Source: Escherichia coli (GTDB taxonomy: Bacteria > Pseudomonadota > Gammaproteobacteria > Enterobacterales > Enterobacteriaceae). From it: a stretch of DNA of 64,000 bases. The DNA lies in NCBI RefSeq assembly GCF_003790525.1, contig NZ_CP033635.1; one strand, written 5' to 3'. The notes under the pieces were generated by a model that searched no databases, was not told where the DNA came from, and saw only the letters and a list, made by a program, of their open reading frames with translations. The translations under genes and the position numbers were made by a program. Shown here piece by piece: positions 9,542-10,868 of this stretch; the stretch's first letter is position 1; the number at the start of each line of letters is the position of its first letter.

Positions 9542-9713
9542 ATTTATGCAACTCTGATTATGTAGCGTTCAGTGATGAACTGTTAATAATATTCTGTCGA
9601 TCCGCTAAGTGTCAGTGTATGCGGTAAGCCTGCCCTTGAGTCACTGTTTGGCAACTGCTACATCTAAGGTGACGTTATCCGCTGACATCGATATTCCCGT
9701 GGTGAGAGATAAC

Positions 9714-10611
9714 CTAACGCACTGGATTTGCCCCTATATTTCCAGACACCTGTTATCACTTAACCCATTACTGGCCTGCTGCCGTAGATATTCCCGTGGC
9801 GAGCGATAACCCAGTGCACTATGCGGATGCCATTCGTTATAATGCTCGAACGCCTCTGCAAGGTTCTTTGCTGCCGTTAACCCGTCTGGTTTAGGCATGA
9901 TACTGATGTAGTCACGCTTTATCGTTTTCACGAAGCTCTCTGCTATGCCGTTACTCTCCGGACTCCGCACCGCCGTGTTCTTCGGTTCAAGCCCCAACAT
10001 CCGGGCAAACTGCCGTGTTTCATTAGCCCGGTAGCATGAACCATTATCCGTCAGCCACTCTACTGGAGACGCCGGAAGCTCGTTGCCGAAGCGGCGTTCA
10101 ACCGCTCCCAGCATGACGTCCTGTACTGTTTCACTGTCGAAGCCGCCCGTAGTGACCGCCCAGTACAGTGCCTCACGGTCACAGCAGTCCAGCGCGAACG
10201 TGACTCGCAGTCTCTCTCCGTTATCACAGCAGAACTCGAACCCGTCAGAACACCGTCGCTGATTGTTTTCTTTTACGGCCACTCTGCCTGTATGTGCCCG
10301 TTTCGATGATGGTACAGCAGGTTTTCGCTCAAGCAATAGCGCATTCTGGAGCATGATCCGGTAAACACGTTTGGCATTGATATCAGGCATACCATCAAGT
10401 TCTGCCTGTCTGCGAAGCAGCGCCCATACCCGACGATAACCATACGTGGGCAGCTCTCCGATAACATGGTGTATACGGAGAAGCACATCCGTATCATCAG
10501 TGTGACGACTGCGGCGGCCATCCAGTCATCGGTTCGTCTGAGAATGACGTGCAACTGCGCACGCGACACCCGGAGACAACGGCTGACTAAGCTTACTCCC
10601 CATCCTTTCAG
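9714..10611 (-). mobile_element. IS2 (IS3 family) partial copy: right end and orfB (insD) only, orfB frameshifted near its 5' end, orfA absent
   Basis: ORF 9734..10486 matches IS2 InsD to its C-terminus (...[11 protein letters not shown]); IS2-type terminus TGGATTTGCCCC at 9714-9725; N-terminal orfB segment ([29 protein letters not shown]) is in another frame. Confidence 0.65.
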
Positions 10612-10810
10612 GCCTACAGCTACTCCACGTAAGGTGTTCTCTGCGATGTTGTTGTCGATTTCCGCCTGACCATTATGCAGTACACGTTCAGCGCATCCCA
10701 CTGTTTCGGCAGGCATGCGAACGCTTTTACTGTATCCGGGTAACGCGACAGTGTTTTCATCTGTTGCTGTATCCAGTCATACTACGCCTGCATCATTGGT
10801 AGCACCTGGG
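10612..10810 (-). mobile_element. internal fragment of a second, diverged IS66-family tnpC
   Basis: About 200 bp roughly 85-90 percent identical by eye to 4030-4250 of the intact IS66 copy; fused in frame to the IS2 remnant in ORF 10273..10716. Confidence 0.5.
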
Positions 10811-10868
10811 CTTTTTTTGCCGCAGGCGCTGGTTCGCAGACTACTAAAATAATACGCGGTTTTTCATT

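Follow-up and report, generated by a model that had tools for sequence, protein, structure and literature searches.

IS2, of the IS2 group within the IS3 family, has a right inverted repeat (IRR) of 41 bp, and its transposition needs both inverted repeats, OrfA and an A6G window for the -1 frameshift from which the OrfAB transposase results; formation of a figure-of-eight or minicircle intermediate likewise requires both ends (PMC3299598). Elements of the IS66 family, such as ISCro1, are built on a tnpA-tnpB-tnpC plan. We analyzed a 64,000-nt stretch of Escherichia coli DNA, referred to as the window, in which remnants of both kinds and of a third, ISEc48-like element (hereafter X) lie between a heme receptor gene and a pepT-like gene.

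Compared with IS2, the locus shares 96% identity over IS2 positions 445-1331, the complete 41-bp IRR and the orfB integrase core with its stop codon in the IRR, whereas the left inverted repeat (IRL), the indigenous promoter, orfA, the A6G slippery site and orfB codons 1-10 are gone, and the remnant is frameshifted by a deletion of 4 bp and has acquired at least 10 private substitutions. Compared with ISCro1 and other IS66-family elements, it holds about 230-245 bp homologous to the C-terminal third of tnpC, including the motif region, at 84.5-85.6% identity to ISCro1-like copies; unlike those elements, the fragment has no tnpA, tnpB or inverted repeats, is internal on both sides and is frameshifted. 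Of X, which is known from strains GPEC1031, AR_0085, CLSC36 and GPEC673, and relative to ISEc48 itself, the window keeps the last 99 bp only. The closest parallels for the arrangement as a whole are the IS-in-IS nests and IS-scarred junctions of E. coli and Shigella pathogenicity islands, where ISs are likewise stacked at a module boundary, truncated and strain-specific. Nothing categorical sets our locus apart from these; its unusual traits are a blunt, in-frame fusion of IS2 to IS66 and a substitution cluster adjoining it. Taken together, the comparisons reported below make it very probable that the region is non-functional scar tissue of three insertion sequences, formed in the order X, IS2, join and 4-bp deletion.

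Results

Genomic setting of the IS remnants

From about position 20878 onward, the window corresponds to lptG-lptF-pepA of strain SMS-3-5 and others at 100% identity. The sequence from position 1 to about 20877, adjoining lptG, is a genomic island, and the IS remnants lie inside it. At the island edge we found a tyrosine recombinase (integrase) gene at 19517-20710, directly after which core E. coli homology resumes at about 20878. No tRNA gene was detected anywhere in the 64,000 nt, so the island is not tRNA-associated at its integrase end.

The remnants are bordered by a gene of the TonB-dependent heme/hemoglobin receptor family (7517-9487, minus strand; TIGR01785, 406 bits against a cut-off of 317) and by a gene for a 410-aa peptidase T-like protein (10869-12101, minus strand). 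Like both genes, every IS-derived piece is oriented on the minus strand. The scar thus forms the seam of two island modules, one with the heme receptor and a DUF4198 gene and the other running from pepT and an ABC binding protein up to the integrase. In strains EH01-18-02 and FDAARGOS_1058, a CobW-family GTPase gene comes after the receptor and DUF4198 genes, and the pair sits beside a tRNA-Arg and an IS4-family element. The receptor module may be part of a wider cassette for metal uptake, not of a system for heme alone.

Promoter-like sites for the receptor gene occur at 9557-9615. Because these lie between the receptor gene and X, the debris leaves them uninterrupted. Only weak Fur-box-like matches (11/19) were seen upstream of the receptor gene. 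No terminator-like hairpin was detected in 9300-11000, which includes the interval from the pepT stop to the receptor start (9487-10869), and an Rfam scan of the debris region matched no family. Since pepT, the debris and the receptor gene share one strand with no terminator-like site between them, it is conceivable that transcription from pepT or the debris could read through into the receptor gene.

The IS2 remnant

A sequence-only reading of this DNA had described nested IS debris, consisting of a 5′-truncated IS2 with an internal IS66 tnpC fragment and an outer IS2-like segment, left by several insertion and deletion events. All three pieces were found, with matches far beyond chance, in keeping with that overall picture, and several of its details are revised below.

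Alignment to K-12 IS2A together with HMM matches placed the IS2 remnant at 9723-10605 on the minus strand, corresponding to IS2 positions 445-1331. Identity to the 1331-bp K-12 IS2A was 96.05% over 887 columns with 4 gap columns (E = 0), within isoform range. The IRR (9723-9763, minus strand) is complete at 41 bp, with one mismatch relative to K-12 IS2A. In the alignment, four other IS2 copies cease to match the window just to the left of TGGATTTGCCCC, at 9723. Because they diverge exactly there, 9723 marks the true IS2 terminus and the exact insertion junction with X; base 9723 itself is assignable to either element. At the other end, the sequence left of the IS2 break at position 445 is IS66-derived, and IS2 1-444 is absent, including the IRL (42 bp), the internal promoter, orfA, the A6G window (approximately IS2 412-418) and orfB codons 1-10 (IS2 415-444).

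The open part of orfB downstream of the frameshift, identified with NCBIfam and Pfam, spans 9734-10486 on the minus strand and covers OrfB residues 53-301, with the stop codon (9734-9736) inside the IRR. It matches the NCBIfam model 'IS2 transposase TnpB' over positions 53-301 of 301 (E = 2.5e-172) with 572 bits against a full-length cut-off of 597, and the Pfam profiles rve, rve_3 and HTH_21 match the same ORF, indicating that the DDE integrase core is present. Upstream, a 4-bp deletion (IS2 526-529, minus strand) shifts the frame near 10520; its placement within 10517-10524 is alignment-ambiguous. The sequence-only reading had called orfB complete to its stop and frameshifted near its 5′ end, with orfA missing. 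The stop, the frameshift and the absence of orfA all hold, and the first 10 codons prove to be missing as well. Truncated and frameshifted, orfB here is evidently a pseudogene. Because it retains a single IS2 end and has neither the transposase frameshift site nor the DNA-binding part of OrfA, the debris region cannot transpose.

Relative to five IS2 variants, the remnant carries 10 private substitutions, all within IS2 671-804 (window 10250-10383, 134 bp). Half of them (5/10) are non-synonymous, including a W-to-R change at 10255 that adjoins what we take to be the first catalytic Asp of IS2 OrfB. Gene conversion by X or by ISEc48 was considered as the source of these 10 changes and rejected, as the bases do not match. 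The 126-aa C-terminal OrfB product was also considered as a marker of the arrangement and found uninformative, being common to many ordinary IS2 copies.

The IS66-family fragment

DNA alignment identified an internal fragment of tnpC, from its C-terminal third and cut on both sides, at 10606-10850 on the minus strand. Positions 10606-10831 match the other IS66-family copy of the window (4010-4237) at 84.7% over 229 bp (E = 2e-65); the local alignment reaches 10835 with 197 of 233 positions identical (84.5%), and weaker similarity runs on to about 10850. The interval of 10612-10810 given by the sequence-only reading for a diverged tnpC fragment was therefore right in kind and too narrow. At the protein level, the Pfam profile DDE_Tnp_IS66 matched over profile positions 244-275 with 23.1 bits, exactly at the cut-off, and the NCBIfam IS66 profile gave 21 bits against a cut-off of 180, each on 30-32 residues only. 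Neither tnpA, tnpB nor terminal inverted repeats were found in 10606-10850. We thus regard the segment as a fragment and not a gene, one whose DNA homology to tnpC is nonetheless unambiguous.

The IS66 remnant and its pepT flank are common to at least six other assemblies (GF60 and five others), at 98.9-99.0% over 4.3 kb and 97.6% over the 295 bp nearest the junction. A 1-nt deletion in the fragment also occurs in the GF60-type relatives, and this common frameshift points to an old pseudogene. In the GF60-type assemblies the remnant extends about 200 bp further, as far as the IS66 right end, and similarity to the window breaks off precisely at 10606. Apart from the same remnant, the best match was only about 87-92% identical, with no close intact relative. 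The fragment had been taken for a second IS66 copy; at only 84.5% identity to the copy in the window, it is an older remnant of a different IS66-family member.

The IS66-family copy at 3788-6542, which the sequence-only reading regarded as intact, itself contains an in-frame nonsense codon in tnpC (stop at 4463-4465), reading GIHP*THLAG where ISCro1 has GIHPQNHLAG, and tnpC is split into ORFs of 319 and 206 aa. Because ISCro1-like sequence (93.9%) is limited to its 3′ 1167 bp, the tnpA/tnpB side being 75% identical or unalignable, this copy appears to be a mosaic or a different IS66-family member.

Element X outside the IS2 terminus

Immediately outside the IRR, at 9625-9722/9723 on the minus strand, lie the last 99 bp of X, a decayed ISEc48-like IS3-family element of the IS2 group, comprising the end of its orfB and its right end. 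The remnant equals positions 1080-1178 of the 1178-bp X copy of GPEC1031, with 99 of 99 bp identical, and the flank with the X end is 97.9% identical in C51, NRZ14408, GPEC1031 and AR_0085. We placed the outer terminus of X at 9624-9638, as strains without X diverge at about 9636 and IRL similarity suggests about 9624. The IS2 terminus abuts X at X position 1079/1080, which indicates that IS2 inserted into X.

X is 84.8-91.5% identical to ISEc48 (KE58 copy) and 69-70% identical to IS2 overall. It has its own distinct, IS2-like/IS3-type inverted repeats, with the IRL recognizable in GPEC1031, and an internal deletion of about 145 bp; in loci of the GPEC1031/AR_0085 type it is annotated as a frameshifted DDE pseudogene. 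Its identity to ISEc48 is under the level usually required for an isoform call. Being below that range, X is best considered a relative of ISEc48 and not the same IS. Some BLAST matches of IS2 running 18-31 bp past the IRR into X raised the idea of an extended IS2 variant or a target preference, and alignment attributed these to chance similarity.

The IS2/IS66 junction and the chimeric ORF

The junction between IS2 position 445 and the IS66 fragment is blunt and lies at 10605-10606; on the minus strand it reads ...GGCCTGAAA directly followed by GGATGGGGAGT... Alignment against both parental sequences revealed neither microhomology nor an IS end on either side of 10605/10606. With no shared bases and no IS end at the crossover, the join is illegitimate and homology-independent, not a transposase product.

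Across it runs a chimeric ORF of 147 aa (10273-10716, minus strand), in which 35 IS66 codons are followed in frame by IS2 orfB codons 11 to about 37 and, after the 4-bp deletion, by out-of-frame sequence. Half the length of the 35 N-terminal residues lies outside the TnpC frame. In an ENA metagenome contig, ERZ27279098:k141_38781 (L033, 3268-4254), the 4 bp are kept and the chimeric ORF stays open for 328 aa to the orfB stop, with HTH_21 and rve domains. The in-frame fusion of the two reading frames arose by chance.

Occurrence of the junctions in other assemblies

The two junction sequences, AGCTTACTCCCCATCCTTTCAGGCCTACAGCTACTCC and GAGATAACCTAACGCACTGGATTTGCCCCTATA, were both absent from 5,426 complete E. 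coli genomes, GTDB representative genomes and JGI metagenomes. Exact-protein look-ups of PepT and the receptor led to the assemblies that carry them, and both junctions were base-identical in four. GCA_045584695.1 (a 4.7-Mb contig) and GCA_965254915.1 are 100% identical to the window, GCA_902163405.1 has 2 mismatches in 10,971 bp, and the ENA metagenome contig is 99.94% identical over 8.4 kb, its IS remnants being identical save for the 4 bp missing from the window. GCA_045584695.1 has an extra IS1 between pepT and a divergent SBP_bac_5 gene, with a 9-bp target duplication equal to window 12198-12206, which indicates a different strain.

The same locus in other strains

Across strains, the locus was found in five different states. 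In the annotated loci of GPEC1031 and AR_0085, a near-complete X immediately follows the same receptor gene, and CLSC36 and GPEC673 carry X at 99.7-100% by full-length DNA match. X is cut after 157 bp by ISEc31 in NRZ14408. C51 has an IS2::X recombinant with its programmed-frameshift CDS intact, the crossover lying in the shared 12-bp GAGGCGTTCGAG. In EH01-18-02 and FDAARGOS_1058, X is missing or reduced to about 12 bp at most, and the IS4-family element and tRNA-Arg follow. The C51 hybrid (L001, NZ_CP127306.1, 7016-8347) joins IS2 1 to about 1220 to the 3′ end of X, combining the IS2 IRL with the X IRR, and its annotation describes an intact IS3-family transposase subject to programmed frameshifting. 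The states in NRZ14408 and C51 are independent fates of the same ancestral X, and the locus is a spot of IS traffic. The AR_0085 chromosome has the receptor module at one site and sequences homologous to the pepT-side module elsewhere. No intermediate with a full IS2 inside X was present in any collection searched.

The sequence-only reading expected the repeats here to be likely substrates for further rearrangement. The C51 recombinant at this very locus speaks for such events; within the window, however, support is weak, as recombination substrates are poor, with no second IS2 copy and a longest perfect match between the two IS66 sequences of 28 bp.

A substitution cluster beside the junction

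Five lineage-private substitutions are crowded into 10610-10635, no more than 30 bp from the junction, and 107 bp separate them from the next difference. They make up 5 of the 45 differences from the GF60-type relatives in 4.3 kb (post hoc binomial test for clustering near the junction, P ~2e-5). In the TnpC frame, three of these five changes are synonymous. Four other IS66-family sequences, which elsewhere differ by about 15%, show no variation in the stretch concerned, and no donor for the bases at 10610-10635 was found in complete E. coli genomes or PLSDB plasmids. When the private substitutions of the IS2 and IS66 parts were considered together, 14 of 15 hit G:C pairs, as expected for unconstrained decay. 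Simple neutral decay predicts neither five changes in 30 bp nor ten packed into IS2 671-804. The cluster could have arisen by mutagenic break repair or come from an unsampled donor.

Discussion

The arrangement suggests the following history. X would have been resident just upstream of the heme-receptor promoter, a state still seen, in decayed form, in other strains. IS2 would then have transposed into the 3′ end of X orfB, as the exact IRR terminus abutting X suggests; that this was normal transposition we only infer, because the IRL-side flank with its 5-bp target duplication has been deleted. Separately, an IS66-family element beside pepT would already have been without its 5′ part, a state common to other strains. 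An illegitimate break-and-join, probably a single event, would next have linked IS2 position 445 to an internal IS66 point, removing the IS2 left end, orfA, the rest of X, the IS66 right end and everything between, and fusing the reading frames by chance. This step may have been either an intrachromosomal deletion or the joining of two islands that had until then been separate. Loss of the 4 bp was the final step, since the ENA contig keeps the 4 bp and has the same junctions, so that fusion preceded deletion; this deletion broke the chimeric ORF.

Two alternatives concern whether the pieces are what they seem. The sequence-only reading had itself raised the possibility that the junctions are assembly chimeras, which could have formed from collapsed repeats, and the absence of both junctions from the 5,426 complete E. 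coli genomes, the GTDB representatives and the JGI metagenomes would fit an artefact. This explanation is effectively refuted and verges on the inconceivable, because both junctions are identical in independent assemblies; the four that carry them include a strain differing by an IS1 and an independent contig differing by the 4 bp. Furthermore, IS2 and IS66 have no common sequence at the join, leaving no repeat at which an assembler could switch, and the X/IS2 join falls exactly at the IS2 terminus, a biological signature. It is also very improbable that the outer fragment is a diverged duplicate of IS2's own 3′ end, such as an old second IS2 copy. The sequence-only reading took it so, as a segment at 9600-9713 about 80% identical to the end of IS2 orfB. 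There is indeed an IS2-like piece outside the IRR, and 45 bp of it (only these) align to IS2 1234-1278 at 82%, but its extent is different and it is 100% identical to the end of X, an element with distinct inverted repeats of its own that, taken whole, is 69-70% identical to IS2 and 85-91.5% identical to ISEc48.

Other alternatives concern the fusion itself. The chimeric IS66-TnpC::IS2-OrfB frame might encode a functional or domesticated protein, such as a truncated transposase with a regulatory role. The fusion is in frame, one assembly holds an open 328-aa ORF with HTH_21 and rve, so that coding potential is not lost throughout the lineage, which counts against a neutral scar, and pepT, the debris and the receptor gene lie on one strand with no terminator-like site between. 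We nevertheless consider function highly unlikely. An accidental join is in frame with a one-in-three chance, half of the 35 N-terminal residues are not in the TnpC frame, the ORF is broken by the 4-bp deletion in the window and three other assemblies, and the W-to-R change sits beside the putative catalytic Asp among private changes of which five in ten are non-synonymous. OrfB alone has no known function (PMC3299598), which also counts against a functional chimera. The substitution cluster invites a two-step origin, in which IS2(445) first fused to an unsampled IS66-family element and homologous recombination with the pepT-adjacent remnant then joined the modules, leaving a 30-bp foreign patch at 10606-10637. 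The tight grouping of the five changes at 10610-10635, their distance of 107 bp from the next difference, the three synonymous changes and the IS66 elements that flank the receptor module in many strains would all suit this course. It is improbable all the same, because four IS66-family sequences that are otherwise about 15% divergent agree throughout the patch region, the complete E. coli genomes and PLSDB plasmids contain no element with these bases, and a crossover would be needed within 107 bp of homeologous DNA. We tentatively raise, at a low probability, the idea that the blunt junction and the cluster are the footprint of one error-prone, homology-independent break repair that also made the 328-aa ORF open before the deletion.

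The reading that we prefer, scar tissue of three insertion sequences, makes this ordinary IS debris of already known kinds and no new system, a passive lineage marker and weak recombination substrate only. As a marker it is clean and clonal, its junctions being absent from 5,426 complete genomes and fixed in a small lineage. For annotation it carries a caution that no IS2 or IS66 transposase gene should be called here. Its importance beyond such bookkeeping is little, and it serves as a useful worked example of IS traffic, with five IS outcomes at one locus.
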